In this document: positions 4,188 through 61,242 of the stretch, one piece after another
Layout of the letters: every line of letters begins with the position of its first letter
How positions within the stretch are numbered: the stretch's first letter is position 1
Virus record (IMG/VR): IMGVR_UViG_3300020059_000002
Span: 157-64,156 of that record
Direction: 5' to 3' (one strand)
DNA: 64,000 nucleotides
Source of the DNA: a virus
The notes under the pieces: model-generated
Seen by the model: the letters and a program-made list of their open reading frames with translations, nothing else
Told to the model about the DNA's origin: nothing
Databases searched by the model: none
Translations under genes and position numbers: made by a program

Positions 4188-4253
4188 TGGACAGTCCGTC
4201 TCACATGGACTGTCCACAGCAGAGTTTGTCCCCCAGTCAGATGGACTGGGGGA
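4188..4253. promoter_or_regulatory. Inverted repeats upstream of transfer module
   Basis: TGGACAGTCC/GGACTGTCCA pair and GTCCCCCAGTC/GACTGGGGGAC hairpin. Confidence 0.45.
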
Positions 4254-4306
4254 CTTTCTTATGCTCCAATGGACAGATTGGACCGATCGAAAGATAGGAA
4301 GGGATC

Positions 4307-5368
4307 ATGGACAAGAAACGGACTGTCCGCACATGGACAGCGACCTTTGGACTGGTTGTCCCTGCGGCCATGGCTCTCGGCTTGTCCGCAGACACATCGT
4401 TCCGGTTCATGGGTGACAGGCTGGACATCACGAATCTCGTCGAACGAAGCGTTCTGTGCGGCACAGCTGAAGCCTCCATCGTGGCCCTGTGCCTGTACAC
4501 ATGGGCCACGGGGACGAAGGGAGCTGCCCGGCTGGCCTACGCGGCGGTACTGATTCAGTCGGTACCTGCGTTCGAGGTATCCGGGAGCTACGGAGGGATG
4601 ATCAGAATTGCCCTGGGTCCCGTTCTCCTGGCAGTGCTCCTTCATCTGTTGCTGGGCCTTGAACTGCGGATTTCCCGTCAGAAGACCTCTGGAGTCCTCT
4701 CTGCCGTCATGCGGGAGGCGAAGGAACGGCTTATCGCCTACTTCGGCCTTGGACGCAGAGGAGAGGATTCAGCGGCCATCGCGCGCAGCAGGGCCGCTGA
4801 CCGTGCAGTCTCCCTCGCTGACAAGGTAGAGGCCGCAAAGGACGGGTCACGTCGTTACCACAGGCTCAGAGCGCTTCTGGCCGACGCCATCGACAGAGCC
4901 AGGCACGGCCTTGACGACGCGGACGCGTGTGCCGCTGAGACGTCGGTCGTTGATCGCGTGGTCCGCAGGAAGTCAGTAGCCGCTCTCGCGACGATCGAGG
5001 CTTCCCACAACTGGACACCGTCCGGCCCTGTCTTCAAGTCGCCTGGACAGAAGGAGTCCAAGCTGCCCAAGTCCTCTGTCCGTCCGGTGTCCACTCCAGA
5101 CGGACTGTCCGGTATGGACACAGCGCCTACAGCTAACAGCGTGTCCACTTCAGACGGACTGTCCGGCCTGGACACGGCTCTTCCAGTCCGCCGTGTGTCC
5201 AACGGGTCCATGAGGTCATTTGCACTGTCCATTCTGGCGGACAGTCCGGATACGGCTGACGATGATCTGCGGACAGCGATCTTGGACAAGTTCGGACAGG
5301 ACAGCAAACCCAACACGGTGTGGCGCTCCATCAAGAGGGCGCGAGAGGACATGGAGAAAACAGCATGA
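4307..5368 (+). CDS. Spd-like (plasmid spread) membrane protein
   Basis: N-terminal TM segments (RIALGPVLLAVLLHLLLGLELR), helical middle, internal repeat VSTxDGLSGxDTA; first gene of the operon containing the traB-like ATPase. Confidence 0.55.
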   Translation: MDKKRTVRTWTATFGLVVPAAMALGLSADTSFRFMGDRLDITNLVERSVLCGTAEASIVALCLYTWATGTKGAARLAYAAVLIQSVPAFEVSGSYGGMIRIALGPVLLAVLLHLLLGLELRISRQKTSGVLSAVMREAKERLIAYFGLGRRGEDSAAIARSRAADRAVSLADKVEAAKDGSRRYHRLRALLADAIDRARHGLDDADACAAETSVVDRVVRRKSVAALATIEASHNWTPSGPVFKSPGQKESKLPKSSVRPVSTPDGLSGMDTAPTANSVSTSDGLSGLDTALPVRRVSNGSMRSFALSILADSPDTADDDLRTAILDKFGQDSKPNTVWRSIKRAREDMEKTA

Positions 5369-5880
5369 TCAGTTTTGTGTACTTGATCGGTCCGGAACCC
5401 GACTACCCCGGATCTCTGATCAAGATCGGAGTAACGACCGACCTTCAGAAGAGACTTCAGACGTTCCAGAGCGGGTCTCCTCTTCCACTGGCAGTGAAGT
5501 GGGCAGTCCCCGGAGACCGGTCTCTCGAACTGTGGCTACACCAGGAATTCTCATCTGAACGTCGACATGGAGAATGGTTCGATCTTGGCCCAGATCCGAT
5601 CGAAACGATTCAGGAAAAGGTAGGGCCTTACCTGATCAATGTGGTGTTGTCGCAGGTCGGAGCGTTTCCGATCACGGTTAGCGCGGAAGATCCGATCCAA
5701 GGGGATCTTGACTCTGACGACCTCGATTCGATCGAAACTCCAGAGGACCAGGGACTGACAATTCCCCAGATTGCGGAGCTGACGGGGATACCGGCATCGA
5801 CTCTTCGGACCTGGAAGCACAGGGGTCATACAGACAGGATCATGACTGCGGTAAGAAACGGGATGAGGCAGGCGTCATGA
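5365..5880 (+). CDS. GIY-YIG/T5orf172-like protein with C-terminal HTH
   Basis: FVYLIG...IKIGVTTDLQKRLQTFQSGSP...RRHGEWF; LTIPQIAELTGIPASTLRTW HTH; ATGA coupling. Confidence 0.8.
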   Translation: MISFVYLIGPEPDYPGSLIKIGVTTDLQKRLQTFQSGSPLPLAVKWAVPGDRSLELWLHQEFSSERRHGEWFDLGPDPIETIQEKVGPYLINVVLSQVGAFPITVSAEDPIQGDLDSDDLDSIETPEDQGLTIPQIAELTGIPASTLRTWKHRGHTDRIMTAVRNGMRQAS

Positions 5881-7835
5881 GCAAGGGCAACATCAAAGAG
5901 GAATCCGTCAAGACGGAGATCAAGAGGGGTGCTCCCTGGCAGCACAGGGTTCAGCCCTTTCTCACGCCCTGGCTGGTCATGGTCTTCGTGTTCCTGGTCA
6001 GCCTGATCACCCACTGGCAGGCGAACGGGCCCGTTGCCCTCGTCTTCCTGACTCTCATGGCGCCCGGTCTCGGGGCTGTGACCTGGAAGACCTGGGACAG
6101 GCGCCATGATCACGCCCGGAACTCAGCCACGGCGTTCGTGACCGGAATGGGGGTCTGGCTGGCTCTGGCCACCGCAGTGGGCCCGCTCACTGACCCCATG
6201 ATCTGGTCCATGGTCTTCGGGGGGTCGTTCCTCTGCCTGACCTGGAACATCCGGCACGCAGGGATCACTCCGACGAACAAGCACGACGGTGTGAAAACGG
6301 GCCCCGTGGACGCTGTGAGCCAGATCAGAGGCCTGAAGAACACAGTGACAGGAAAGGTCAAGACGATCACAGATGACATCGGCGCCCGCGCAGAAGTGAT
6401 CCTGAACCATCCTGGTGGGAAGAACACCACGTCGGACGTGAAGGCCCACCGGGAGAACATCGCAGGTCTCTACGGAGTGGAGACCGCCTCCGTCAAGGTG
6501 TCAGAGCACAAGGGCGGACAGTCCAAGGTCACTGTCCGGCTGACCAATCCGACCACGGACGTTGTCCTGTATCCAGGACTGTCCGCTCCTGGGAAGTCCA
6601 TCACCGCCAGGACACTGCGGACAGGCGTCCGTGAGGACGGACAGGAGTCCGGACACTGGATCACCGGGAACGATGAGGACAGCCGCGCCGCGTCCGCGAC
6701 TCTGTACACCGGGATGACGGGAGCAGGGAAGACCGAGGCGTTCATCCTGGCAGTGCTGGAGATGATCAGCAGGACAGACTGTGCTCCGCCAGTCGTCGCG
6801 GACGCCGAGAAGTTCATGCTGTCGTTCGGACACGTCATGGACGTCTTTGATCTCGCAGCGGACGGACCTGCGCAGACGTCCCAGCTGATCAGCAACCTTC
6901 CTGAGGCCATGCGGTACCGGGCGCGGCTGCTCGGCTCCCTCGGGTTCCACAAGGGATGGGTCCCTGAGGCCTGGACCAAGCACCGGATCCCGGTCCAGCC
7001 GATCCATGTAGAGGAAGCGGCCGGGTACCTGGCTGGCTCTCCTGACTTCCAGAAAGCGATCATGCTGTGCCGCGCACTGGGCATGCCGATTTCGGCATCC
7101 TTGCAGGTCGCGGGGTACAAGCAGCTGGACAGGGCCACGCGCAGCCAGTTCGGGAACAGCCTGGCGTTCGGTGTCCGCGAGAAGCCCGACGCGGCGTTTG
7201 CCCTGCTGGACGAGACACTGCGCGCAGGTGCGGACCCGTCCAGGTGGGCGAACAACCATCCCGGACGGCACGTCGCTGAAGTCACGGGCGTTCCGTCCGA
7301 TCAGTGGCCGCTCACGCACCGGACCTTCAAGATCAGTGACGAGGAACTCCAGGCCACGATCGAGATGTGCCGGAACGCTGGCTGGGCACGGTGCGACGAA
7401 GGGACATTTGAGCTGCTCAGCATCGGTATCGAGCGTCCTCAGCGGATGAGTGTCCATGTCACCGACTGGAGCGAACTCGACACGGGCGAGAGAGACACCG
7501 TGACACTTTCGACCGCTCCGGTGGAGGACATCCGCCCTGCATTCCTGGAGGCCGTCCCTGCACCTGTGTTCGAGATGATCAAGGGAGGGGCCAACGACCA
7601 GCCGCCCCCGCCGGACGTCGCCCACAGCATGGTCGAAGGCCGGATCGAAGAGCTTGAGGAGTCCGGCGTCACGGAGCTGACCAAGGACGACTTCGAGGAT
7701 CTTCCTCTGGACCGTGACCGTACCTGGATCTTCGGGGAACTCCGCCGTCAGGTGAAGGCCGGACGGCTGGCGCGGGTCCCAGGGAAGGGAGCCAGATACA
7801 AGATCGTTCCGGAGGCCGAGCGCGAGGAACTGTGA
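5877..7835 (+). CDS. traB: TraB-like FtsK/SpoIIIE-type conjugative DNA translocase
   Basis: N-terminal TM helices, Walker A GMTGAGKT, Walker B-like IHVEEAA, ISASLQ, C-terminal winged-helix-like tail (WIFGELRRQVKAGRL); architecture of Streptomyces plasmid Tra proteins. Confidence 0.78.
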   Translation: MSKGNIKEESVKTEIKRGAPWQHRVQPFLTPWLVMVFVFLVSLITHWQANGPVALVFLTLMAPGLGAVTWKTWDRRHDHARNSATAFVTGMGVWLALATAVGPLTDPMIWSMVFGGSFLCLTWNIRHAGITPTNKHDGVKTGPVDAVSQIRGLKNTVTGKVKTITDDIGARAEVILNHPGGKNTTSDVKAHRENIAGLYGVETASVKVSEHKGGQSKVTVRLTNPTTDVVLYPGLSAPGKSITARTLRTGVREDGQESGHWITGNDEDSRAASATLYTGMTGAGKTEAFILAVLEMISRTDCAPPVVADAEKFMLSFGHVMDVFDLAADGPAQTSQLISNLPEAMRYRARLLGSLGFHKGWVPEAWTKHRIPVQPIHVEEAAGYLAGSPDFQKAIMLCRALGMPISASLQVAGYKQLDRATRSQFGNSLAFGVREKPDAAFALLDETLRAGADPSRWANNHPGRHVAEVTGVPSDQWPLTHRTFKISDEELQATIEMCRNAGWARCDEGTFELLSIGIERPQRMSVHVTDWSELDTGERDTVTLSTAPVEDIRPAFLEAVPAPVFEMIKGGANDQPPPPDVAHSMVEGRIEELEESGVTELTKDDFEDLPLDRDRTWIFGELRRQVKAGRLARVPGKGARYKIVPEAEREEL

Positions 7836-7838
7836 TCC

Positions 7839-7878
7839 ATAAGAGACCGGATGGCTATGCGGCCATCCGGTCTCTTAT
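7839..7878 (+). terminator. 17-bp perfect hairpin after traB
   Basis: ATAAGAGACCGGATGGC-TATGCG-GCCATCCGGTCTCTTAT. Confidence 0.7.
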
Positions 7879-8022
7879 GCGGTAACCATAAGTAAATATA
7901 AGAGAAGATACTGATACGTAGTGTAAGAAAAGCTCTGTACGGCTCTCTGACGAGATCCTTTGGTGTCCCTGGTACTGGGACACCAAGGGTAAGATCAAAA
8001 GAGTTTCCGCAGGTCAGAGCTT
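7875..8022. repeat. Dispersed repeat copy A (88-nt core plus CCGCAGGTCAGAGCTT)
   Basis: 7875-7962 matches 33467-33554 at 82/88 nt; 8004-8022 matches 33595-33613. Confidence 0.9.
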
Positions 8023-8069
8023 CATCAACTTCTATGGTCGAATCGGTGTGAGAGACTCACTGCATACAT

Positions 8070-8113
8070 GTGAAGAGCCCAGTGAAGCCCAGAGTGAAGC
8101 CCCCTGTGAAGCC
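8070..8113 (+). repeat. Four 8-bp direct repeats at 12-bp period (candidate clt/TraB-recognition locus)
   Basis: GTGAAGAG at 8070; GTGAAGCC at 8082, 8094 and 8106; directly downstream of traB. Confidence 0.6.
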
Positions 8114-8175
8114 ACCTTCACACCCCATTCCACCTAGCACTTCTCGCGGTACTCACCACTGACAGGAACAGGGAG

Positions 8176-8577
8176 ATGACCATGGACGAGATCGAGCGGT
8201 ACAGGGATCCGGGAGAGCGTCTCCCTGCCCTGATCGACTACCTGAAGAACGATCAGGTGGAGAGAGCGGTGAGGAGCGGGCAGCCGATCGTCAACATCAC
8301 GATCAATGAAGCGCCGCGTCCCGTGGCTGCCGAGCCGAAGCAGGATGTTGCGACCAAGTACGCGGGGCACATGATCCTTGCGACGTGGTCCCTGATCGTT
8401 CTCGCGGGAGTGGCCGTCGTGTTCGTCATGATCGCAGGAGCGCTGATGACCATGATGATCTCGCTCGCGGTCTGCGTGATCGCGATCGCCACTGCGGTGG
8501 GCTTCCTCCGCAGGTCGAAGGGCGAGTCCCAGGCTATGGAAGACGCGCGCGCATACGTGCGTACGCGTAAGGGATGA
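8176..8577 (+). CDS. Small two-TM membrane protein, Spd-like
   Basis: GGGAG RBS; two hydrophobic helices and a basic C-tail; downstream of traB. Confidence 0.65.
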   Translation: MTMDEIERYRDPGERLPALIDYLKNDQVERAVRSGQPIVNITINEAPRPVAAEPKQDVATKYAGHMILATWSLIVLAGVAVVFVMIAGALMTMMISLAVCVIAIATAVGFLRRSKGESQAMEDARAYVRTRKG

Positions 8578-8600
8578 GTAGATCAAGGCTGGACCAGGCA

Positions 8601-8631
8601 GGCCCCCTCGGTGATCCGAGGGGGCCTTTTT
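8601..8631 (+). terminator. Rho-independent terminator
   Basis: GGCCCCCTCGG-TGAT-CCGAGGGGGCC-TTTTT. Confidence 0.85.
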
Positions 8632-8861
8632 GATCTCCAGATTCACCAAAGTTCTTTGTATTGACTTTTGTCTACGGCCTTTGACCTGCGACGATGGACC
8701 ATGAGATCATTTGACATGTCTTGATCCCTGCTCTATCTTTGAACCAGAACGAAGAACAGAACAGCAGGGGCGGCAGGACAAGGAACCACCGCCTCAACAA
8801 CAGAAAAGCGGGAAGGCCGCCAGGGAAGAACCTCAGTACCTGGCCAACCCCCAGGAGCAAA

Positions 8862-12672: not shown

Positions 12673-12746
12673 GCTCCCGTAGCTCATCCGGACAGAGCAT
12701 TGGACTTCTAATCCAAAGGCGGCAGGTTCGAGTCCTGCCGGGAGCA
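12673..12746 (+). tRNA. tRNA-Arg(TCT)
   Basis: Acceptor GCTCCCG/CGGGAGC; anticodon arm TTGGA-CTTCTAA-TCCAA; T-arm GCAGG-TTCGAGT-CCTGC; no encoded CCA. Confidence 0.92.
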
Positions 12747-12757
12747 CGCAAGGAACC

Positions 12758-13144
12758 ATGAACAATCATCCCGGACAGGTGGTGCACATGATCCGCAACA
12801 CCGATGAAGAGCGCACGTTCAACGACCTCCGGATCGCCGTGGACCTCAAGCGGCCGGTCACGGTCGACTACGTGAAGGCGGACGGTACCCGGACGGTACG
12901 GGTCATCGAGCCGTACGAGATCGGCAGTGCAAAGGGCCGGACGGTCATCCGAGCCATGGACCGCCAGTCCCGGGACTACCGGTCCTGGAGACTGGACCGG
13001 ATCTACGCCTACCGGGTCTCCCCCGCGCGCGGACGGTTCGCCGTACCTCGCTCCATGGGGACCCCGGAACCCGTAAAGCCGGTCACTGCCGCACGGTACG
13101 TGCCGGACAGCACAGGGCCGGAGGCCGCGTCATGTTCTCTGTGA
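12758..13144 (+). CDS. Stand-alone WYL-domain protein
   Basis: VTVDYVKADGTRTVRVIEPYEI...RSWRLDRI. Confidence 0.85.
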   Translation: MNNHPGQVVHMIRNTDEERTFNDLRIAVDLKRPVTVDYVKADGTRTVRVIEPYEIGSAKGRTVIRAMDRQSRDYRSWRLDRIYAYRVSPARGRFAVPRSMGTPEPVKPVTAARYVPDSTGPEAASCSL

Positions 13145-13374
13145 TCTATCAGGCGACCTTGATCCACGATGCGAGCAACGCCTGTCACGTGCAGGGCCAG
13201 TACGTCGGTCCTGAACTTGAGACCGAAGAAAAAATCAAGGAAATCGTAGTCAAGGACCTGATCGAAAGAGAATTCCCCAGTGACTGGGGTTGGACCAGGG
13301 AGAAAACCAGGATCCTGGAATTCACCTGGACGGACATGCCCGAGGTACCGGAAGACATCCGGGAAGGGATCTGA
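13132..13374 (+). CDS. Hypothetical protein
   Basis: GGAGG RBS, 80 aa. Confidence 0.65.
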   Translation: MFSVIYQATLIHDASNACHVQGQYVGPELETEEKIKEIVVKDLIEREFPSDWGWTREKTRILEFTWTDMPEVPEDIREGI

Positions 13375-13375
13375 A

Positions 13376-14017
13376 ATGATCAATGATCGGCTGGCTCTGT
13401 CCAAGGACTACAAAGGACCGACGTCCGGACGGATCACGGTCGGACCGGAGGGCGTGGCCAAGCGGGAGACGTTCACCCGTGAGACCGACCCTCCCCTGAC
13501 CCGTGACGAACTGACAGCTACCGAGGAGTTCAGGGCGCTGGGTCCCAACGAGCAGATCCGGGAGTACCGGATCCAGAAGTGGAACGCGGCATCCCGGAAG
13601 AATGATCTCGACTCGGCAAAGAGCATCATCGAGCGCCAGGAACGGGAGATCGAAACCCTCCGGGCGAAGCTCGCAGTGTTCACCCCGGACGGCTACACAA
13701 TGCCGGGCGCTGCGTCCCTGCTCCTGGCTCATGCAGAGGATCACGGATGGCGAACAGCCCGAAAATGGCACGTCCACGAGCCCCGCACCGACGAGTACGC
13801 GGACGAGATCGAATACGCCCGGCTGGAGATCGCCCTCACGAACGTCCTGTGGGCGTTCCGGCTCTCGTGGTCGGTGGACCGTGGAGGGGGCGGCCGGATG
13901 ATCCGGTCCGGTCTCGCGTGGAAACTCAAGGGCGGATGGCATGACGCCCCGTCCCTGCGGGAGATCAAGAACATCATTACGGAGTCTCCCAGAGAAGACA
14001 TCCAAGAAGGGATCTGA
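13376..14017 (+). CDS. Hypothetical protein with coiled coil
   Basis: AAGGGA RBS; ATG 13376. Confidence 0.75.
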   Translation: MINDRLALSKDYKGPTSGRITVGPEGVAKRETFTRETDPPLTRDELTATEEFRALGPNEQIREYRIQKWNAASRKNDLDSAKSIIERQEREIETLRAKLAVFTPDGYTMPGAASLLLAHAEDHGWRTARKWHVHEPRTDEYADEIEYARLEIALTNVLWAFRLSWSVDRGGGGRMIRSGLAWKLKGGWHDAPSLREIKNIITESPREDIQEGI

Positions 14018-14018
14018 A

Positions 14019-14225
14019 ATGATCTACACCATCGAGTACCTGGACCTGCTCATGAAGGAGCACACCCAGTACGAGACCGACAACATCCAGATCGCCACGG
14101 TCATTCTTCACGGAGTGGCGGAGAGCACCTCCACCGAACTACTGGGCTTCAGCCCGGAGCTGGACGGTGCGCTCGACCACGTTCTGTACGGAGTCAAGCT
14201 GTACGACGTTCCGATGGTGGCCTGA
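14019..14225 (+). CDS. Hypothetical protein
   Basis: AAGGGA RBS; MIYTIEYLDLL... Confidence 0.65.
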   Translation: MIYTIEYLDLLMKEHTQYETDNIQIATVILHGVAESTSTELLGFSPELDGALDHVLYGVKLYDVPMVA

Positions 14226-14398
14226 TGGCTACTGTCCGGATCTATCTGTCGAGCGGCCAGACGATCGTCATGAAGGACGCCAGGCTGACCATGAATTCTG
14301 TCGGCGACATTCCCAAGATCGAGTCCGGCAGTACCCAGATCGCACTTCTGGACCAGGACAAGATCGTCGCCATCACGTCGGAAGATGACCGGGCATGA
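14225..14398 (+). CDS. Hypothetical protein (57 aa)
   Basis: TGATG coupling; MATVRIYLSSGQTIVMKDA... Confidence 0.6.
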   Translation: MATVRIYLSSGQTIVMKDARLTMNSVGDIPKIESGSTQIALLDQDKIVAITSEDDRA

Positions 14399-14528
14399 AG
14401 CAGACCAGGATCGTGAAACAGACCGTCCGCCGTCCCTCCCCTCAGGACACCGACCGGAGATCACCTTCCGGGAAGATCACGTGGAAGAACTGACCAACGG
14501 CCTGCCGGGAGCAGCGATCCCGTGCAAA

Positions 14529-14599
14529 GCCCCCGTGGTGTAAAGGATGCATGCCGCTCTTTCAAGGCGGAGATACCGGATCATGACCGGTTGGGGGTA
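14529..14599 (+). tRNA. tRNA-Glu(TTC), atypical T-loop (possible pseudo-tRNA)
   Basis: GCCCCCG/TGGGGGT acceptor; CCGCT-CTTTCAA-GGCGG; T-arm ACCGG-ATCATGA-CCGGT lacks TTC. Confidence 0.6.
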
Positions 14600-14793
14600 C
14601 GCAAGGCAGACCGTTCAGCCGTACGAGACTGCCTCCCTCACCGCAGCCAGCGGGGCATGAGGGTCAAGGGGAAGATACGGCCCCTCGCGTGGGCCAGGGT
14701 TACTCACGCTCTCTGCGCCCGGAGATGAACGGGTGTCCCGACACAGGGGCGTACCACCAGATGATGACGTTGCATCCGAAAGATCGGAGAATC

Positions 14794-14982
14794 ATGACCG
14801 TTCCTGGCAGTCAGCCCGAATGGTTCAAGTCGAGCTACTCGACCGGACAGAACAACTGTGTGGAGATCCGCACTGCTGGTCCTCACAACATGGAGATCCA
14901 GGACAGCAAGACCGATTACGAGGAGACGGTCTTCGTCACCTCCAGTGCGTTCCGCGCGCTGATTGGCTTCATCCGCAACTGA
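14794..14982 (+). CDS. DUF397 protein
   Basis: WFKSSYSTGQNNCVEI...IQDSK signature. Confidence 0.9.
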   Translation: MTVPGSQPEWFKSSYSTGQNNCVEIRTAGPHNMEIQDSKTDYEETVFVTSSAFRALIGFIRN

Positions 14983-15016
14983 GCAACGGCCTGCCGGGAG
15001 CCGTGATCCCGTGCAC

Positions 15017-15088
15017 GCCCCCATGGTCCATAGGTTAAGACACCGGGCTTTCAATCCGGGGAAGCGGGTCCGAATCCCGCTGGGGGTA
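15017..15088 (+). tRNA. tRNA-Glu(TTC)
   Basis: GCCCCCA/TGGGGGT; CCGGG-CTTTCAA-TCCGG; GCGGG-TCCGAAT-CCCGC. Confidence 0.85.
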
Positions 15089-15296
15089 CGAACGGCGTCC
15101 TTGTCGTCCAGTGGCAGGAGAAACAGTGATCTTGACTTCACGTCTCACCAGGGCCGTCCTCTCATGGACAGTTCTCCTCATCGCGGTCTTCGGCGTGTGC
15201 GCCGACTGCGAGAGGGAGGGCGGTCTGTACCAGGGCGGTGGAGATTCATCCCCTGGGTGGCGGAAGTAGATCCACGGGCAGGAACCAGGAGGGATC

Positions 15297-15536
15297 ATGG
15301 CGAACAGCACAGAGCCGTACGCGTGGACGTACGAGGAGGACGGAATACTCCGTCAGGTGAAGATCCACACAACCAGGTGCGGCCGTGACGTCGTCTGGAA
15401 GCCCCGCTTCCTGGGGGACGAAGCACCGTGGTTCGATGCGGACTACAGCGAAGATGACCCTGCGGCATACTTCGGGGACGAAGACCTGGCGACGCTCGGC
15501 ATGCCCGTCACGCAGTGGGCAGGGTTCGACGTCTGA
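15297..15536 (+). CDS. Hypothetical protein
   Basis: GGAGGG RBS, 79 aa acidic. Confidence 0.7.
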   Translation: MANSTEPYAWTYEEDGILRQVKIHTTRCGRDVVWKPRFLGDEAPWFDADYSEDDPAAYFGDEDLATLGMPVTQWAGFDV

Positions 15537-15613
15537 CCCAGGGGAAAGAACGACAGGTTCCGGCATCAGAAGGGATGCCGGTGATGGTGCACCACGTCTG
15601 AGATGAGGATCAC

Positions 15614-15811
15614 ATGATCAAGCTTGGTGAGCTTTCCGACTGGACCAAGTCCAGTCACTCCACTGGCAACGGCGCGTGCGTGGAAGTCCGTTCCGGCGAA
15701 GCCACTGCTGTGGAGGTCACCGACAGCAAGATCGAGGACACTGCCTCTCGGCCGGTGTTCCGCGTCGGTCCGGACGCGTTCTCCGCGTTCGTGGCCAGCG
15801 TGCGTTCCTGA
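15614..15811 (+). CDS. DUF397 protein
   Basis: WTKSSHSTGNGACVEV...VTDSK...FSAFVASV. Confidence 0.9.
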   Translation: MIKLGELSDWTKSSHSTGNGACVEVRSGEATAVEVTDSKIEDTASRPVFRVGPDAFSAFVASVRS

Positions 15812-15858
15812 TCAATAGCAATCCGACTGCCCCTGGTGAACATGCCGGGGGCAGTCGT

Positions 15859-15931
15859 GCATCTGTAGCTCAGCGGCCAGAGCAGCGCCTTGTCATGGCG
15901 AAGATCGCGGGTTCGAGTCCCGTCAGATGCG
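15859..15931 (+). tRNA. tRNA-Asp(GTC)
   Basis: GCATCTG/CAGATGC; D-arm GCTC..GAGC; CGCC-TTGTCAT-GGCG; GCGGG-TTCGAGT-CCCGT. Confidence 0.9.
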
Positions 15932-15974
15932 CTCATGCCCGCCGGATTCATTCCAATGAAAGGAAAGTGATCAC

Positions 15975-26495: not shown

Positions 26496-28868
26496 TCACG
26501 TTCCGAACAGTCCGGTGTCGAACATGCCCTGAGTCGGATGATCGAAGATGAATACGGTGTCCGAGTCGTCTGCCGAGATCGGATCGAACACACCGTCGTC
26601 GAACCCGGATCCTCGCACGTCGAACCGGAAGGGATTCACGGTGAGGTTCAGCGTCCGTTCGCACCCGAGGATCACGGAGTGCACCGGAGCGTGCCCGGCC
26701 TGGTTGATCCGCTGGATTGTATGGGTCACCCGTTCGACGAAGTAGTCGTCATCGATCCCCATTTCGTCGTTGGTGACGTGGATCCGGTCGGAGATCGTCC
26801 GGTTCAGCACCTGGAGGAAATGAGCCGGATCAGAGGTGACGACCCTGAGCTGAATGGTGGGCCTGCGGTGGGCATAGTGAAGAAGGATCATGTCGGCGAT
26901 CGCGCTCGCGTCGTTGGCGTTCGCCCACGGAGCCGTGTCCGGGTAGCTCTTCTCCCCGTGACTGGTGACGGACCCGGAGTCGGTCTTCTCCACCTTGACC
27001 GTCCTCATGACGGGGATCAGACGTCCCCTGAGCTTCAGGGCGGAGATCACTACCGATCCTCCGACAGCCAAGAGAGTGATCTTCACTGACTGTCCTGAAC
27101 CCCGGTCCATGGTGACGTTCACTGTCCCGGCACCGGACGCAGTGAAGTCCGTACCCACCACTGGAGTGACCGCATCCTTGAACGGGTCACTTCCGGAGAC
27201 GTCGATGGAGACGCTCTGTCCGATGGACAGGACATAGACGTCATCCGACTGCCAGACGTCTTCCAGAGAAGACGAAGCAGTGCGCTCCGAGACATCGAAG
27301 GAGACCGTGTTCACGATGTCCCGGAGGCCGTGCTGATAGATCCAGGGCTTGGCGATACTGAACCCGGTGAGAGGCGGAGAACTACAGTCGAATGCTTCCG
27401 CCACGAAGGTTCCCTGGGACGTCAGGGAAGACGAGTTCTGAATCCTGTGGTGCCTGTCCCGGAAGATGAATGTTCCGTCGGGAGAGACGTAGGAGATCGC
27501 TGGGGGACCCTCTGATTTCACAAGATCCTGGATCGCGGTGAGCGCGTCAGTTCCCTCTGCCCACCAGTACTTCACGATGGTGGCCCCGAGATCTATGTCC
27601 CGGGCGGCTGTCCATCCCGCCAGGTCGAGAATCGTATCGATGATGTCTCCGGTGCGGAGAGATTCGTACACAGCGGTGGAAAGCTTCACTCCCTGGAGGA
27701 GATTCAGCCCGTCCAGGAAACTGAAGGAGACGGTCCGGTCCTCGAAGTCAGCCTTCACGTCGTAGTCATCGATCTTCCCCCGGAAGAGAGGGAAGGTGGT
27801 CCCGGCCCACACCACTTCGAACTTGGCGTCACGCGCAGGATCCAGGTCGCCGAACAAGGGACCGGAAGCGTACTCCGGACTGTAGGTACGGCTGACGTTG
27901 CACAAACGTGCACTCGCACTGCCGACTGCTCCGGGAGAGAGCTGGCGCTCCTGGTTCCGGCCATAGGTGATCACTATGTCGTCGATTTCGTCCGACGTGA
28001 CGTTCTCCCCCACATCGTCAAAGGTCCCATCCTGGTCCCAGTCGATTTTCATCGAGTACGCAGGTATCCCGCTCGCACCGCAGAGATCCCACGGCCCCTG
28101 GACGGTGGACGACGCGGCACCGAAAGCAGTACCTGTCCCCGACGCCACATCGGCTATCGCGACCGCTCCCCCCGCCACAGGAGCAGGGCGGATCACGACG
28201 GAAATCATGACTGACCCGAACTCCACCACCGCACTCGCGGTGGTGGTCCGCACTGTCTGGGCGCCTGTGCCCAAAGCAGTGTTCGAGTCGTACATGGCCC
28301 CCGACTGAGGCTGGTCGAAACTCAGGCTGTCATCCACCCGTTCGACATCTGTTCCGACAGAGTCGGTGAAGGTCTTGGACGTGTCCGAACCCGTGGACCT
28401 CAGGGTGATGAGCCAGCAGTTGACCAGAGCGGTGGAGAGAGCCGGGTGAGCCTGAGCAGCAGTCGTGGAATTCGTAGCTGCGGTGTTCCACTCCCCGATC
28501 GGGGTGGTGGTATCGCACCCGCTGTACGCAGCGATCCACGCCAGAACATACGGCTTGCCGACAGGCCAGGCAGCCGAGCTGAAGCTGACGGTGACGGACG
28601 AACCCAGGGCCCCATTGTCTATCCGGTAGAACAGGGAAAACCTGGTGTAGACCCGGTACGGACTGGAGGAACTGGTTCCTGATGAAGTCTGGGTGAGCCG
28701 GGTCCATCCGGCTGGGGTGGTGGGGCCCGTGGTGTCGTCGTCCAAGACCACCATCAGCAGAAGGTCGTTCGACACATGGCCTGCGGGCATGGCAACAGTG
28801 GGGGACGTACCCGTGACCCCCGTATCAACCTTGGTCCGGGCTCCGACCGAGCGGAAAGCAATCGCCAT
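26496..28868 (-). CDS. Minor tail protein (distal/baseplate) with N-terminal accessory domain
   Basis: 790 aa directly after tape measure; IDWDQDGTFDD, LFRGKIDDY. Confidence 0.8.
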   Translation of the reverse strand: MAIAFRSVGARTKVDTGVTGTSPTVAMPAGHVSNDLLLMVVLDDDTTGPTTPAGWTRLTQTSSGTSSSSPYRVYTRFSLFYRIDNGALGSSVTVSFSSAAWPVGKPYVLAWIAAYSGCDTTTPIGEWNTAATNSTTAAQAHPALSTALVNCWLITLRSTGSDTSKTFTDSVGTDVERVDDSLSFDQPQSGAMYDSNTALGTGAQTVRTTTASAVVEFGSVMISVVIRPAPVAGGAVAIADVASGTGTAFGAASSTVQGPWDLCGASGIPAYSMKIDWDQDGTFDDVGENVTSDEIDDIVITYGRNQERQLSPGAVGSASARLCNVSRTYSPEYASGPLFGDLDPARDAKFEVVWAGTTFPLFRGKIDDYDVKADFEDRTVSFSFLDGLNLLQGVKLSTAVYESLRTGDIIDTILDLAGWTAARDIDLGATIVKYWWAEGTDALTAIQDLVKSEGPPAISYVSPDGTFIFRDRHHRIQNSSSLTSQGTFVAEAFDCSSPPLTGFSIAKPWIYQHGLRDIVNTVSFDVSERTASSSLEDVWQSDDVYVLSIGQSVSIDVSGSDPFKDAVTPVVGTDFTASGAGTVNVTMDRGSGQSVKITLLAVGGSVVISALKLRGRLIPVMRTVKVEKTDSGSVTSHGEKSYPDTAPWANANDASAIADMILLHYAHRRPTIQLRVVTSDPAHFLQVLNRTISDRIHVTNDEMGIDDDYFVERVTHTIQRINQAGHAPVHSVILGCERTLNLTVNPFRFDVRGSGFDDGVFDPISADDSDTVFIFDHPTQGMFDTGLFGT

Positions 28869-31800
28869 CAGGCAGTACCCCCCAGAGAACGGGGAAGACG
28901 TCCCTGACGCCTGAGCTGGTCAAGGGAGTCGTTCAGCCACCTGTATGTCTCTTCACGGGAACCGATGACCCCGTGATTCACCACTGTCAGATTCACTGTG
29001 GTGGGCGCACCTGCCTGGCTGTCACGTCCCAGGGACAAACGGCTGGTCAGCCTCTCGAAAGCAGCTGTCTGCCGAGGACTCAGGACACGCTCGGGAGCGT
29101 TGGTCATCTTGGGCATGAAGCCCATTCCACGGGCAATGCCGCCCTGGTCGTACCAGTGCGGAGACCTCTTCAGCCATGCTGAATAGGCGTTGACGGGGCT
29201 CCCGTACCTGGATTTGATGTACTTCTCGCCCCACCTGATCTGAGTAGCCGCGTTGGTCTTCCAGTCAGGCCCCTCGCTGGCCATCTTGTTACCCGGAAGT
29301 GACTGCGGAATGCCTGTGGCCCCTGAGGAAGCGTTGTACGCGTTCGACCTCCAGCCGGACTCTCCCTGCCACAGGGCCTTCAGCGCAGGCCACTGAGAGG
29401 GGCCCCAGCCCATGGATTTCAGGTACATCTGCGCGTACTGCTGTGCGGCCCCGACTGCGGACGCGTTCCCGAGGCCGACTGCACCTCCGAGAGTCGCCAG
29501 ACCTGACTTGATCTTCCCGACCACATCGGCGATCGTGTCCCCGGTCCCGTAGATGAACGACCCGACACCCTTGAATCCGATCTTCAGGCCCTTGAGCAGG
29601 CCACCCATGAGCGCCCTGCCCGCAGGAGTCAGGAGACGGGCGTCCAGGGAGATCGGTCCCTTGTGATCTTTGATCCACTTGGCGATCCCGCTCACCCACT
29701 TGGTCAGGTCGCCCCACTTGTCCTTCAGCCCCTTGAGGAGACCGCTGAGAACGTCCCTGCCCTTCTGATACAGGAGCTTTCCCACGTTCCCCAGTGAGCC
29801 TGAGATGGCCGCTCGGCGCCCGTTCACCCATCCGCTTGCGGCAGACCAGTAGGACTTGAACCCGTTCAGGAGTCCGCTGATGACGTCCCGGCCCTTCTGG
29901 TGCAGCCAGGTCCCTGCGTTCCGGAAGAAGTTGAGGACAGGCCTGAAGATGTGGTTCGAGAACCAGGTGACGATCGTACTGGCGACCGCCAGATGTCCCT
30001 TGATCAGGCCTATAAGAACGTCCCGGCCCTTCTGGTACAGCCAGGACCCTCCGTTCCGGAAGAAGTTGACCACTGGATGAAAGACGTGGTTCATGAACCA
30101 GGTGCTGAGCGTCTGAGCGATCGCCGCATACCCGCGCAGCATTCCGAGAATCTGGTTCTTCCCCTTGTCGTACAGCCAGGTTCCAGCTGTCTTGAAGAAG
30201 TTGACCACTGGATGGAAGATATGGTCACTCAGCCACTGGCCAGCTCCCATAGCGATCTTCAGCATCCCGGAGAACAGGCCCCGGATCAGATCGATCCCGA
30301 GAACAGCCATGACAAGGGACGGGGAGTGAATCCCGAATACGACCTTGAAGTAGTCCACGATGCCGTGCCAGAGCGTTTTGAAAAACGCGGGGACACTTTT
30401 GGTGAAGAAGTCGGTGGCTCCTTTGAAGAGACCTTTGATCAGGTTCTCACCCATGTTGATCAGTGCGTCGTTCCCGCTGGACACGGATTTTCCCAGCTTG
30501 CCCGGAAGATCACTGAAGAAGGATGCGGCTGCCTTGGCCGCAGCTGAGAACCAGTGCCCGATCTTCCCTGGGAGAGTACTGAAGAATCCTGCTATCTGGA
30601 CGGGGAGATCGATCATTATCTTTCTCACGCCGTGGGCGAAGTCGACGGCGAAATCGATCACAGCATGAAAAGCAATCTTGGCCCCATCAACGATCTTATT
30701 CCAGTTCCGGACGATGTACAGAACTGCAAGTCCGACCGGTCCAGCCAGGAGAGCCAGGATCAGGGGCCAGTTGTGCTTGACCCAGTCGATCGCGGTCCCG
30801 AACGCATGAGTCACTCCATCCCAGTGCCTGACGATCATCGCTGCTGCGAGGCCGATGGGTCCGGTCAAGATGGTGAAGACGATGAGCTGCCAGTTGTTCT
30901 TCAGCCACCCGACGAACCCTGACACCACACCTCTGATGAACCCCCACACGGCTTTCCAGGTCTTCTGGAAGAACTGGGTCTGGGTGGCCAGATAGATGAT
31001 TCCGGCGATCAGAGCGGCGATTCCGATGACGATCAGGCCTATCCCTGACGCAGCGAACGCTGCATTCCAGGCCCATTGCGCGGCAGTGGCTACCGCAGTC
31101 CAGGCAGCCTGGAGCTTGGTCCAGACGAAAAGGGCTGCGAGCTGCACCCTCATAATCATCAGGCTGTCTGTCTGAGCCAGAGTGGCGATCGTCCAGGCTG
31201 CCTGTGCAGCGGCTGCGATCGCGGTGTACGCAGCGTAGATCTTCGTTCCGATGTACACCGCGCTGAGCACCCCGAGCAGGGACACGAGTGCGATCACCAG
31301 GGCGAAGACGACGTTCTTGTGCTCACCCATGAATTTGATGATCCCGCTCACCACTGGGATGAGCTTGGTCCCTATCTCGATCATGAGAACGCGAACGGTC
31401 TGCTTGGCACGGTCGAGCTGGACATTCAGAAGATTCTGAGTAATCTTCCATCCTTCTACGTCCTTGGTCCCGTTGTGGAAGCTCTCCCCCACCTTCTTCA
31501 CGCGTTCTTCAAACCCTGCCTGGCTCTCACCAGTGAGCTGGAGAATCGTGTTCAGACCGATGGCACCGCCGGACATTTTCTTGATCGAGTCCGTGAATGT
31601 CTTCGCGGCAGGACCGCCAGACTTCAGCTCCCTGGAGAATCCCCGGGAACGGTTGACCAGAGTGGTCAGATTCCGGAGCATCGGCTGAGTCTCGGTCGTA
31701 CCTCCCTTGACCACTGCCTTCCAGTCGTCCAGCTCGATGGTCCCGGCAGCGAAAGCCTTGGCCTGCTTCTGGAGTTCTGGAGGAAGCTTGCTGATCATGA

Positions 31801-32743
31801 TCCGGGCGTCTTCGGCGCTCTGTTTGGTCCCCTCGAACGCGCTCAGCAGGATCTTCCCGCTCGGGCCCATCTTGCTCAGGACAGTGGTGGTCAGGAGATC
31901 GATCGTCCCGGTAAGCCCGCGCTTGCCCAGCTTCTGGCTGACATCCACGGAAGACAGTCCGAAGCGCGCCATCTCCCTGGAGGCAACCATGTTCGGGGAA
32001 GCCAGATTCCGGATCGTCGCTCCGAGTTCGTGGGTGGCCTCACGGGCTGACGTGCCGTGCTGGGTCAGGGTCGCGACCGCACCTGCCACCTGTTCGAACG
32101 AGATCTTGTTGGCGCTCGCGATCGGAAGCACGGTGGACATGGCACCGGAGAACTCCTCCATGGTGATCTTGCCTTCACCTGCGGCCGTCTTCATCCCGTT
32201 CATGACCTTCACGGAATCCGTGGCCTGGAGGTGATAGCTGGCCATGATGGACGTCATCGCGTTGGTCACGTCGGAGAGCTGTGCGTTCTCCTCACGGGCA
32301 CCCTGTGCGGCAGCCTTCAGGACCTTCAGGCCGTCCGCTCCCCGGAAGCCCGCCTTCTCGATCAGGTACATGCCGTCCGTCAGGTTCTTGATCCCTGTGC
32401 CTGTCCCCTTGGAGATGTCCAGGATTCCGGCACGGACCACCTTCAGACCAGCTGCGGACTCACCTGCCGCTGTCTGGAGAACAGCTGTCTCAGCCTGGAA
32501 GTCGCCAGCCATCTTTACTGAGACAGCTGCGACCCCCAGGCCCAGTGCTGAAACACCTTTGCCTACCTTAGCCATGGAAGTAACCGTGGTGGCGGCAGAA
32601 GCACGGAGTCCAGCAGCCGAGCCATCCATCTGGGCCTTGGCGATACGCATGTCTGCCGCAAGAGCCTTACCCCACTTTTTAAAGTCAGGAAGGATTTCGA
32701 CAAGGCCACGACCGACAACGGCAGACGCACCGAACTCAGACAT
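28868..32743 (-). CDS. Tape measure protein with C-terminal lytic transglycosylase-like domain
   Basis: 1291 aa helical/aromatic repeats; LWQGESGW...GIPQ...QIRWGEKYIKSRYG. Confidence 0.92.
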   Translation of the reverse strand: MSEFGASAVVGRGLVEILPDFKKWGKALAADMRIAKAQMDGSAAGLRASAATTVTSMAKVGKGVSALGLGVAAVSVKMAGDFQAETAVLQTAAGESAAGLKVVRAGILDISKGTGTGIKNLTDGMYLIEKAGFRGADGLKVLKAAAQGAREENAQLSDVTNAMTSIMASYHLQATDSVKVMNGMKTAAGEGKITMEEFSGAMSTVLPIASANKISFEQVAGAVATLTQHGTSAREATHELGATIRNLASPNMVASREMARFGLSSVDVSQKLGKRGLTGTIDLLTTTVLSKMGPSGKILLSAFEGTKQSAEDARIMISKLPPELQKQAKAFAAGTIELDDWKAVVKGGTTETQPMLRNLTTLVNRSRGFSRELKSGGPAAKTFTDSIKKMSGGAIGLNTILQLTGESQAGFEERVKKVGESFHNGTKDVEGWKITQNLLNVQLDRAKQTVRVLMIEIGTKLIPVVSGIIKFMGEHKNVVFALVIALVSLLGVLSAVYIGTKIYAAYTAIAAAAQAAWTIATLAQTDSLMIMRVQLAALFVWTKLQAAWTAVATAAQWAWNAAFAASGIGLIVIGIAALIAGIIYLATQTQFFQKTWKAVWGFIRGVVSGFVGWLKNNWQLIVFTILTGPIGLAAAMIVRHWDGVTHAFGTAIDWVKHNWPLILALLAGPVGLAVLYIVRNWNKIVDGAKIAFHAVIDFAVDFAHGVRKIMIDLPVQIAGFFSTLPGKIGHWFSAAAKAAASFFSDLPGKLGKSVSSGNDALINMGENLIKGLFKGATDFFTKSVPAFFKTLWHGIVDYFKVVFGIHSPSLVMAVLGIDLIRGLFSGMLKIAMGAGQWLSDHIFHPVVNFFKTAGTWLYDKGKNQILGMLRGYAAIAQTLSTWFMNHVFHPVVNFFRNGGSWLYQKGRDVLIGLIKGHLAVASTIVTWFSNHIFRPVLNFFRNAGTWLHQKGRDVISGLLNGFKSYWSAASGWVNGRRAAISGSLGNVGKLLYQKGRDVLSGLLKGLKDKWGDLTKWVSGIAKWIKDHKGPISLDARLLTPAGRALMGGLLKGLKIGFKGVGSFIYGTGDTIADVVGKIKSGLATLGGAVGLGNASAVGAAQQYAQMYLKSMGWGPSQWPALKALWQGESGWRSNAYNASSGATGIPQSLPGNKMASEGPDWKTNAATQIRWGEKYIKSRYGSPVNAYSAWLKRSPHWYDQGGIARGMGFMPKMTNAPERVLSPRQTAAFERLTSRLSLGRDSQAGAPTTVNLTVVNHGVIGSREETYRWLNDSLDQLRRQGRLPRSLGGTA

Positions 32744-33402: not shown

Positions 33403-33466
33403 TGGATCAACGTAACAGCGAGGGCCGCTTGATCTTTCCGGGACTCGTATGCGGAGACCTGCACGG

Positions 33467-33613
33467 TTATGCGGTCACCATGAGTAAATATAAGAGAAGA
33501 TACTGACACGTAGAGTCAGAAAAGCTCTGTACGGCTCTCTGATGAGATCCTTTGACATGAGTGGTACATGCGGTCCACCGCATCGAGACAGGGATTTCCG
33601 CAGGTCAGAGCTT
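33467..33613. repeat. Dispersed repeat copy B
   Basis: Matches 7875-8022 (see copy A). Confidence 0.9.
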
Positions 33614-33670
33614 TATCGTCTTCAAGATGTTACCAGGCAGTAAGGAGAGACTGCATAGTCACTCACGTGA

Positions 33671-41490: not shown

Positions 41491-43266
41491 TCAGAGCTGA
41501 GCGGTAGCCGCGATACCTGCGGATCCAGCGCCGTTGACGTTGTAGTTCGTGGTGTAGATGCGAGACTCGTGGCCGACCTTGGCGACCATGTGAGTTTCCT
41601 CTGCCCACGCAGCTGTGAAATCGTTCTCCGCGTTCAGGACCGAGTCACGAACAACTCCAAGGTCCAGGCTCATGCCCTGGCCGTGAAGGAATGTCCCGGG
41701 GGCGTACATCATGAACTGAACCGCAGTCGGCCATGAGGTACGGCCGGTGCCGAAGCCGGAAGCCCCTCGTACCTGCCAGTCACTCACGAACTGAGCACGG
41801 AGACCCCTGTCAGTGAAGAACCCTCTGAGCACGCTGTCCGGAACAGACTCGCGCTCTACGTTGTTCCTCCATGCCAGGTCGGCACGCATGACCGCGAGAG
41901 TCCACCTCGGATAAACCACTTCGAGCACCGCATCATCCGCCATCGCGAACTTGTTGCGGTAGTCGGTTGCAGCCATCTCCGCTGCGTCCAGGATCGTCTG
42001 AAAGGCTCCCTGAGTACCCGCAGCAGGAACATTCGTGATACCTGTCGAGGCTGCCGATACGAGAGAGATCAGCCGAGCGTTGATCGCGTGGGAGTACGCC
42101 ATGCGCAGCAGCCGGAGGAAGTTCTGAGTCTGCTCCGGGTACGCGCTGTCCGTGAGGTTGCCCGCAGTCAGGGTGAGACCGTAGGCCTCAAGGCGCCCTG
42201 AGGTGAACGTGGAACACGGGACACGCAGGGTGGGCTTGTTGACCGCACCGGTCACCGTGAGCTGATCGTCCGTGTCGGACCACAGCCACGGGTCCGAAGT
42301 GTTGGCGAAACTGAACGCGAATCCACCGAAGCCGGATGCCGCGTTGCTCGCACCAGAGGTGTAGAACACATCGCCAATGGCAGGGGACACGGGCCACTGG
42401 AGGCCGCCGCGCGTGACACCGATCGTGGGGAGATCGATCATCCCTGTCGGCTCTTCGGCGATGTTGAAGAAGTTGTAGCGGATCTCATTCGGAGCACACC
42501 ATCCGCCACCTGCGGTCAGAGCAGGAGAGCCCGGCTCCGACGCCATGGCCTCCATGATCTCCTGGATCACGAAGGGGGAGGTGTTGTTGTCCGCCGTGTG
42601 CTTGAACTCGTTCCGGATGCTCGCGACCTTGTGGCGGGGAGCCTCACGTCCGAGCTGGGTAACCGGGACGTCGTTGGACTTGGAGATGAACAAGTCCGCG
42701 AGAGCGTCCACACTGGCGACAGAGTTTCCGGTACCAGCGGCAGTGATCGGGAGCTTGGCGGGGGGAGCAGCCACCTTGGGCGCCACCTGAGCAGTCTGCC
42801 CGAGGGACGCGACGGCACGTTCGGTGACCTGGGTGAGACTGGTCGTACGGCGGTCACCCATGAGCTTCACGAACGCGTCGGTGACGCCACGCGCAGCAGC
42901 AGCAGCGATCGCCTCGGTCTGTTCGATGTCATTCCGGACAGCGGCAGCGGCAGCCTCGGGAGTTCCCTTAGCTGGTCCGTTGATGGACTCATTGATCTCG
43001 TTCATGGTCCGCTCAGCACTGAGCTTGGACGATGCAGCCTGCTGCTCCGCCCGGACCTTGCGCGCGGACATCTCCGCCTTGACACGGCTGAGACCGTCTC
43101 GCAGCTCGAACGCGTACGAGACGTCATCCTGCGTGTAGTTTCCGGGACCCTGGTCCCGGACAGCGTTGAACGATTCCAGAACGCGGGTATGAAGTTCGTC
43201 GAGTTCCAGGTCACCGAGCGGAATCAGGTCACCAGGTACAGCGATTCGTTCGAGCGGCTCGGGCAC
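41491..43266 (-). CDS. Major capsid protein with N-terminal scaffold-like region
   Basis: Coiled-coil N-terminus; ALTAGGGWCAPNEIRYNF, LDLGVVRDSVLNAENDF. Confidence 0.85.
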   Translation of the reverse strand: MPEPLERIAVPGDLIPLGDLELDELHTRVLESFNAVRDQGPGNYTQDDVSYAFELRDGLSRVKAEMSARKVRAEQQAASSKLSAERTMNEINESINGPAKGTPEAAAAAVRNDIEQTEAIAAAAARGVTDAFVKLMGDRRTTSLTQVTERAVASLGQTAQVAPKVAAPPAKLPITAAGTGNSVASVDALADLFISKSNDVPVTQLGREAPRHKVASIRNEFKHTADNNTSPFVIQEIMEAMASEPGSPALTAGGGWCAPNEIRYNFFNIAEEPTGMIDLPTIGVTRGGLQWPVSPAIGDVFYTSGASNAASGFGGFAFSFANTSDPWLWSDTDDQLTVTGAVNKPTLRVPCSTFTSGRLEAYGLTLTAGNLTDSAYPEQTQNFLRLLRMAYSHAINARLISLVSAASTGITNVPAAGTQGAFQTILDAAEMAATDYRNKFAMADDAVLEVVYPRWTLAVMRADLAWRNNVERESVPDSVLRGFFTDRGLRAQFVSDWQVRGASGFGTGRTSWPTAVQFMMYAPGTFLHGQGMSLDLGVVRDSVLNAENDFTAAWAEETHMVAKVGHESRIYTTNYNVNGAGSAGIAATAQL

Positions 43267-48287: not shown

Positions 48288-48341
48288 GTGATCCTCCCTG
48301 TACCAGTCGAGCACAGGATAGCCGCATGATCGGTTATTCCC

Positions 48342-54177: not shown

Positions 54178-54178
54178 G

Positions 54179-54253
54179 TCCGGTGAGCGGGAATCGAACC
54201 CGCGCTCTCTTGCTCCCGAAGCAAGTGCCTTGCGCTGACTTGGCCATCACCGG
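54179..54253 (-). tRNA. tRNA-Pro(CGG)
   Basis: CCGGTGA/TCACCGG; CTTGC-TTCGGGA-GCAAG; GCGGG-TTCGATT-CCCGC. Confidence 0.9.
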
Positions 54254-61106: not shown

Positions 61107-61242
61107 GTCATGACCTCTCTTTCGATGGATCACCTGGTGCTTCGTCTCCACCACCCGACCGAACATCCGACCAAGAACCCCCATCCGACGACAGCACCAA
61201 TGCGTGCTGCAATCTTCACTCCGCGACCCAATGCAAGTGCGC

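Follow-up and report, generated by a model that had tools for sequence, protein, structure and literature searches.

The transfer block

We analysed a stretch of viral DNA of 64,000 nucleotides, called here the window, which covers positions 157-64156 of a 67,224-bp IMG/VR record (G000; 61% GC). Its centre of interest is a putative plasmid-type DNA transfer block at 4307-8631, inside the genome of a tailed phage. The block consists of four genes, coding for an SpdB-like membrane protein (P0002), a protein with T5orf172/MUG113 and helix-turn-helix (HTH) domains, a homologue of the plasmid transfer protein TraB, and a small membrane protein (P0003). A spacer of 346 nucleotides, which contains an array of short repeats, separates traB from the P0003 gene. 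Positions are collected in Table 1.

Two ATGA overlaps, one between the P0002 and T5orf172 genes and the other between the T5orf172 gene and traB, indicate translational coupling. Two family-2 glycosyltransferase genes precede the left boundary, and hairpins with T tracts close the block on both sides, in agreement with the preliminary description of this DNA, which had proposed a terminator-bounded block. The four genes that it listed are all present on the + strand and where it had put them, with two start codons slightly corrected. For the gene described as GIY-YIG/HTH the domains are found as announced, but the start is better placed at 5365 than at 5320.

The TraB ATPase

The NCBIfam profile of plasmid TraB (NF041214) recognizes the product of traB from end to end (E = 1.8e-98, profile positions 2-636 of 639), with a score of 330.7 bits for an equivalog cut-off of 800. 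Membership in the family rests on this profile, on the fold and on alignments, because the Pfam model FtsK_SpoIIIE (PF01580) is silent: it gives no match to TraB even at E 10, and no FtsK model matches. A tblastn search with TraB matched 50 plasmids, 45 of them from Streptomyces, among them pSN22 and pWTY27, whose TraB proteins are 25-33% identical to the phage protein in alignments that cover some 95% of the length. The Walker A motif GxxGxGKT (G279-T286) and the acidic pair E379/E380 are invariant among 21 homologues.

The AlphaFold (AF2) model, with a predicted local distance difference test (pLDDT) score of 71, has four N-terminal helices (residues 21-48, 52-75, 78-101 and 106-127), a beta domain, a RecA-like core, a disordered linker and a C-terminal winged helix; hydropathy marks segments 25-47, 51-70 and 86-104. 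Foldseek ranks the FtsK motor first (6T8B/2IUS, E ~1e-10, best 1.3e-10), followed by TcpA and EccC. Modelled alone, the C-terminal domain reaches a pLDDT of 85, with a helix-helix-helix-strand-strand topology, and its best fold matches are all winged-helix DNA binders, at weak E values of 0.03-0.2.

By profile, alignments and tree, the ATPase that had been reported as TraB-like groups with the conjugative TraBs and not with non-conjugative FtsK proteins. Judged from homology and predicted fold, it appears to be a true plasmid-type TraB, that is, a putative membrane-anchored, FtsK-like translocase of double-stranded DNA with a winged HTH domain.

Phylogeny of the phage TraB proteins

Homologues of this TraB are found on 24 IMG/VR contigs of 29-99 kb, and 50 metagenomic homologues, many on contigs of 79-88 kb, are 33-81% identical to it. 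The same capsid gene was present in 5 of 5 TraB contigs tested, at 56-73% identity. We computed a quick maximum-likelihood tree with IQ-TREE from 44 phage TraB sequences, plasmid TraBs and the Tra protein of pZL12. The phage proteins, encoded by a full-length traB in every case, form one clade with a Shimodaira-Hasegawa-like approximate likelihood ratio test (SH-aLRT) value of 99; this clade splits into two subclades and stands beside the plasmid TraBs as their sister group instead of branching from within them. The Tra protein of pZL12 sits on a very long branch.

Since the phage TraBs are monophyletic and the viral contigs that carry them, of 54-99 kb, share the same capsid gene, the module appears to be old and vertically kept rather than recent cargo: on this comparison, it is a native, conserved core in a lineage of tailed actinophages with genomes of 80-99 kb. 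No account of this TraB-bearing lineage came up in literature searches, and megablast and tblastn comparisons of the block and of TraB with 50,697 phage records, a set that may not show close relatives, gave no match. What is novel here is a TraB of the classical family on a phage-specific branch, together with a new repeat core, the lack of TraR, and the lack of maintenance genes in the subclade to which this phage belongs.

The repeat array downstream of traB

The array begins with GTGAAGAGCC, followed by three copies of GTGAAGCC, with starts at 8070, 8082, 8094 and 8106 and thus a period of 12 bp. The repeats span 8070-8113, and an inverted partial copy, CCTTCAC, comes after them. GTGAAGCC has only one further occurrence in the window, where the array is the only phased chain of at least three GTGA motifs; none of 2000 shuffles reaches it.

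Each of the six subclade loci compared, those of this genome and of five IMG/VR relatives (L009-L013), has an array with a GTGA core in this position, and at each locus 0 of 2000 shuffles matches. The TraBs of the relatives are 46-67% identical to this one, and their arrays consist of 4-6 repeats of the type CTGTGA(A/G), spaced by 11-14 bp, the spacers between cores being different. In half of the loci (L009, L011, L012) the array begins within 10-35 nucleotides of the traB stop; the other half (this genome, L010 and L013) has a conserved element, about 230 nucleotides long, between traB and the array.

The sister subclade carries TGTCA(G/C)/CTGACA arrays immediately after traB, with the same core as the footprinted TGACACC repeat of pWTY27. 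A strict periodic test on exact 5-mers finds clear arrays in 5 of 19 sister-subclade loci and weak ones in 5 more; the test is conservative and its failures are not evidence of absence, because it also misses the proven clt of pWTY27. The predicted recognition helix of the winged helix changes in step with the repeat core, from RTWIF..L.R.VK.GRL in this subclade to GWVY..L.LLV.AGVL in the sister, a contrast between two groups only.

Deletion and footprinting have shown that the TGACACC repeats of the pWTY27 clt are bound by Tra and needed for transfer (PMC3583192), and the clt loci described in print generally have, next to the 3' end of tra, direct repeats of 7-9 bp accompanied by inverted ones (PMC3583192, PMC4447253). 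The phage array resembles them in position, in repeat length and in its accompanying inverted repeats. By its sequence, it is a candidate clt that recurs in the subclade. The array is a new observation of this analysis, beyond what the preliminary description contained.

Two other features of the spacer are worth recording. The element at 7836-8069 has a perfect 18-bp hairpin (7838-7879), an AT-rich core and a second hairpin (7957-7989). The genome has this element again near 33430-33660, within the tail operon, and relatives have it at L010:7960-8195 and L013:7942-8178, while L009, L011 and L012 do not; the copies share conserved flanks and an AT-rich core around a variable central hairpin. 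An Rfam scan of 7700-8800 found no family; the element may act as a structured RNA or as a promoter/terminator unit of the phage, or have arrived as a small mobile insert. The second feature is a motif resembling CTG(A/G)CCT(A/T)AG(G/A) that follows the arrays in both subclades (8121-8150 in the window, 7955-7975 in L011, and also in L015, L019, L022 and L030) and was not seen in those plasmid clt regions that we inspected. Its role may be that of a promoter element for the downstream membrane gene, or it may form a terminal part of the cis site.

Neighbouring genes

P0002 had been described as an Spd-like membrane protein. This label rests on its homology to plasmid genes adjoining traB and on its architecture, and has no family model behind it. 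Neither P0002 nor its counterparts in the subclade match any family, DUF2637 included, in the Pfam copy searched, and P0002 has no similarity to the spd genes of pSN22 at E up to 1e-3. However, residues 5-240 are 62-65% identical to the product of a gene just downstream of traB in small conjugative plasmids of S. canus and S. goshikiensis, the order in the S. canus plasmid being GntR-traA-traB-orf-P0002 homologue. The N-terminal 240 residues or so are 60-68% identical to the counterpart in the sister phage subclade, and the N-terminus is weakly similar to pZL12-73, whose gene lies two genes from the FtsK-like gene of pZL12. There are 189 homologues, mostly from Streptomyces, on contigs of 12-20 kb and 79-106 kb, one of them named 'conjugal transfer protein'. 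Language-model neighbours of P0002 (Atlas features) carry SpdB_N (PF27080) and HTH_SpdB_C (PF27079) with scores of 0.87-0.90, which we take as a lead only. Homologues of SpdB2 on actinophages were noted by Thoma et al. (PMC4447253).

The N-terminal domain of the protein is hydrophobic, and a linker joins it to a C-terminal domain that is small and conserved. Close relatives have this same C-terminal domain, of about 55 residues, in the product of their traB-coupled gene, where it follows a different N-terminus with four helices. A 54-bp tandem repeat of 2.3 copies (5078-5201) encodes a repeated linker rich in Ser, Thr, Pro and Gly. In a comparison with loci L009-L032, P0002 is a mosaic: its N-terminal domain is nearest to those of the sister subclade and of small plasmids, yet the adjoining TraB is only about 33% identical to theirs, a pattern that points to recombination within the P0002 gene.

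The T5orf172 gene matches the Pfam families T5orf172 (E = 3e-10), MUG113 (9e-11) and HTH_23 (5e-5). It occurs in 0 of 24 related loci, and its N-terminal nuclease domain is 49% identical to that of a GIY-YIG gene of the S. canus TraB plasmid. On our reading it is probably a selfish or recently recombined insertion, outside the conserved module. P0003, announced as a second small membrane protein, does have two adjacent transmembrane helices by hydropathy (about residues 61-111). It is kept downstream of the array at 43-67% identity in L009, L010 and L013, and weakly in three sister-subclade loci; Pfam and NCBIfam profile searches assign it to no family.

The phage genome

G000 is a linear piece of the genome, of 82% completeness according to CheckV, which breaks inside the primase-polymerase gene. 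An 80,306-bp metagenome contig from ENA has an identical TraB, is 99.9-100% identical to G000, and contains an extra 12,941 bp that join its two ends. The sum 67,224 + 12,941 + 141 = 80,306 is the length expected from a circular assembly, with k = 141, of a genome of 80,165 bp. In the bridging part there are genes for a helicase, a Gp5.9-like protein and a small HTH protein, and it also supplies the N-terminus of the primase-polymerase; helicase and primase-polymerase are the replication genes of this genome.

The tailed-phage setting given in the preliminary description is borne out by a complete virion module on the minus strand, with terminase, portal, MuF-like protein, capsid and tape measure genes. 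This is an 80-kb tailed phage of a putative Streptomyces-like host. Five tRNA genes (Arg-TCT, two Glu-TTC, Asp-GTC and Pro-CGG) lie at 12673-15932 and 54178-54253, and close to tRNA genes are a WYL-domain gene (12758-13144) and a WhiB-zinc-ribbon gene (20570-21043).

Table 1. Features of the transfer block and genes of the virion module, in window coordinates.
Feature	Position	Strand	Remarks
Terminator-like hairpin, left boundary of the block	4228-4254	+	11-bp stem with 8 GC pairs, T tract; ends the upstream glycosyltransferase operon
P0002, SpdB-like membrane protein, 353 aa	4307-5368	+	hydrophobic N-terminus
T5orf172/MUG113 + HTH gene, 171 aa	5365-5880	+	Pfam domains
TraB, 652 aa	5877-7835	+	NF041214
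Conserved non-coding element, ~230 nt	7836-8069	+	between traB stop and repeat array
Candidate clt, repeat array	8070-8121	+	four direct repeats and an inverted partial copy
P0003, small two-helix membrane protein, 131 aa	8182-8577	+	hydropathy
Intrinsic terminator, right boundary of the block	8600-8627	+	12-bp stem with 10 GC pairs, TTTTT tail
Tape measure	28868-32743	minus	
Major capsid	41491-43266	minus	
MuF-like protein	43532-46516	minus	
Portal	46494-48314	minus	
Large terminase	51830-54037	minus	

A phage genome that moves without a capsid?

Our explanation of these data, which we consider probable with some room for doubt, is that the block is an intact TraB-clt system of the Streptomyces-plasmid type through which the phage transfers its own double-stranded genome from one hyphal compartment or hypha to another, aided by an SpdB-like protein. 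In plasmids, tra and clt are sufficient for transfer of pWTY27 (PMC3583192), and traB is the key gene in pSVH1 (PMC4447253). For the phage, homology, architecture, conservation and the pattern of the cis site are observed, and from these we infer binding, pore formation and transfer. The four N-terminal helices of TraB would insert in the membrane, where an FtsK-like hexameric pore would form, and the C-terminal winged helix would dock on the phased GTGA-core repeats just 3' of traB. The motor would pump the double-stranded phage genome through septal cross-walls, into touching hyphae, or both, assisted by P0002 and perhaps by P0003. The outcome would be capsid-free spread of the genome, either from a plasmid-like prophage or during productive replication.

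Several points weigh against this explanation. The score of TraB, about 330 bits against a cut-off of 800, and the silence of the Pfam FtsK_SpoIIIE model mark it as a divergent branch, whose activity could differ. The 230-nucleotide insertion parts the array from traB in this genome, and since the array precedes the next gene by about 60-170 nucleotides, it might just as well serve as an operator or promoter. No GntR-type TraR is present in this genome, and unregulated traB is toxic in plasmids (PMC4447253). Finally, this subclade is known from metagenomes alone.

The preliminary description had gone further and proposed a conjugative phage-plasmid. The conjugative half of this proposal retains the plasmid-type TraB, the clt-like array and the SpdB-like gene, but the plasmid half finds little in the genome. 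The suggested check for rep, parAB and integrase genes came out negative: neither ParA (PF13614) nor any tyrosine or serine recombinase is encoded in the whole 80,165 bp, and the lack of an integrase, reported for the window, extends to all of G000 and to the 12.9 kb outside it. PF00392, the family of GntR-type regulators, is missing both from G000 and from the Pfam hits in the other 12.9 kb. A ParB-like domain does occur, but once only, at the N-terminus of a fusion with a DNA methyltransferase (59586-61184, minus strand). Integrase, ParA and serine recombinase are also absent from three near-complete genomes of the same subclade (G001-G003), and no repressor was recognised among the genes scanned.

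A stable extrachromosomal prophage that mates between mycelia, as pZL12 does, is for these reasons a doubtful reading of this phage, though one that its relatives keep alive. The relative pS1D4-14.2 was deposited as a separate replicon of a Streptomyces isolate and combines virion genes and a P4-type primase with ParA, ParB and a tyrosine recombinase, and the account of Zhong (2010) in PMC3583192 has pZL12 transfer depend on tra and two adjoining genes. The lineage is divided in this respect. As the genomes G001-G005 and G008, behind loci L009, L011, L013, L016, L026 and L018, show, a tyrosine recombinase and ParA occur in the isolate-borne subclade and not in the metagenome-only one; both retain TraB and repeats. 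Searches of 185,579 species genomes returned three matches, all from Streptomyces (S. africanus NRRL B-24243 and two NPDC strains), all on stand-alone contigs of 54-93 kb and all of the sister subclade; the subclade of this phage was in none of them. Episome-like occurrence, on stand-alone contigs in Streptomyces isolates, is thus seen only for the sister subclade, for which a plasmid state is plausible; for this genome it is unsupported. That the genome assembles as a circle suits a plasmid, but is also compatible with a terminally redundant virion genome. On the subject of partition, the ParA of pS1D4-14.2 has no counterpart in this genome, and its stand-alone 'ParB' is matched by the methyltransferase fusion at 39% identity, so that this annotation may not indicate partition.

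A tentative alternative, of which we are far from convinced, is that the phages of this subclade are non-lysogenic and use TraB-clt in productive infection, to send their replicating genomes through cross-walls and into neighbouring hyphae. If true, bacterial viruses would have a counterpart of the systems by which plant viruses move from cell to cell, and it would be established as a core gene set in an entire phage lineage.

It is rather improbable that TraB-clt is a segregation device in the manner of FtsK/SpoIIIE, which would replace the missing ParA and send phage or episome copies through closing septa into compartments or prespores. The motor has the FtsK fold, its phased and oriented repeats recall the logic of FtsK orienting polar sequences (KOPS) and SpoIIIE recognition sequences (SRS), a part in spreading within the mycelium, across cross-walls, is ascribed to plasmid TraB too (PMC4447253), and this subclade lacks the ParA that its sister has. 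But the sister subclade retains both ParA and TraB-clt, which are therefore not simple alternatives, and the repeats are gathered at one site, as in a clt, instead of being distributed along the genome.

Equally hard to credit is a set of readings in which the repeats are the operator or promoter of P0003, TraB having some role other than moving the phage genome, such as the exclusion of other elements or the mobilisation of host DNA, or being a decaying plasmid remnant: the array does lie upstream of P0003, a conserved motif of the CTGRCCTWAG type follows the arrays in both subclades, and the mosaic affinity of P0002 and the GIY-YIG gene to small plasmids indicates recombination with plasmids, but invariant catalytic motifs and a full-length traB in 44 of 44 phage sequences argue against decay, the array abuts the traB stop in L009, L011 and L012 and lies anywhere between 50 and 170 nucleotides from the gene that follows, and experimentally defined plasmid clt loci lie in the same spacer between traB and the next gene (PMC3583192).

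As a rule, conjugation of the TraB type is held responsible for horizontal spread in Streptomyces, and phages are assumed to travel in virions only. A core module of TraB and docking repeats, present in at least 44 sequences, some of them from cultured Streptomyces, would blur the line between phages and conjugative elements, and capsid-free transfer by TraB-clt would offer phages a route past receptor-based and extracellular defences. Because standard mobility typing classes these replicons as 'non-mobilizable', their transfer potential is overlooked in surveys of plasmids and phage-plasmids. Since culturable carriers exist (Streptomyces sp. S1D4-14 and S. africanus NRRL B-24243), capsid-independent spread is directly testable.

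Comparison with known systems

With the small Streptomyces plasmids pSN22, pWTY27, pSVH1 and pJV1 (NF041214), the phage shares full-length TraB homology, with the same order of transmembrane region, FtsK-like motor and winged HTH domain, and short direct and inverted repeats in the spacer 3' of traB; with the S. canus plasmid, it shares a P0002-like membrane-protein gene next to traB. Unlike them, its replicon is that of an 80-kb tailed phage, with neither traA nor a GntR-type traR. Its TraB, 25-33% identical to theirs and below the equivalog cut-off, occupies a separate deep branch, and its repeat core is GTGA(A/G), where the plasmids have TGACACC, CCGCACA or GACCCGGA. The spdB-like gene is upstream of traB and translationally coupled to it in the phage, and downstream in the plasmids.

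The motor fold (6T8B, 2IUS), the C-terminal winged helix and the presumed recognition of short oriented DNA words are likenesses to FtsK and SpoIIIE. Unlike these, the phage-encoded TraB escapes the Pfam FtsK_SpoIIIE model at E up to 10, and its repeats form one local cluster.

The plasmid-phage pZL12 (phage ZL12, NC_013420.1), cited as a precedent in the preliminary description, is a real experimental one: PMC3583192, citing Zhong 2010, gives it as a Streptomyces plasmid-phage whose tra region, tra and two neighbouring genes, is required for transfer, and its genome context is treated in PMC4487206. Like the phage studied here, it is a virion-forming actinophage genome with an FtsK-like tra and neighbouring membrane genes, one of which, pZL12-73, is the weak homologue of the P0002 N-terminus. 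As a relative of this phage it was rejected: neither its Tra nor its major capsid protein has detectable similarity to G000. It also has ParAB (PMC4487206) and a GntR regulator, and this genome has neither.

The nearest sequenced relative is pS1D4-14.2, deposited as a 98.8-kb replicon of its own for Streptomyces sp. S1D4-14 (NZ_CP041606.1). It differs by its TraB, which belongs to the sister subclade, by an array of the TGTCGG/CGTCAG type, by genes, lacking in this genome, for ParA, a tyrosine recombinase and an XRE regulator, and by being without the T5orf172 insertion. The two replicons are nevertheless syntenic in their virion, primase, glycosyltransferase and spdB-like/traB/array modules, with identities of 53% for the capsid protein, 61% for P0002 and 33% for TraB.

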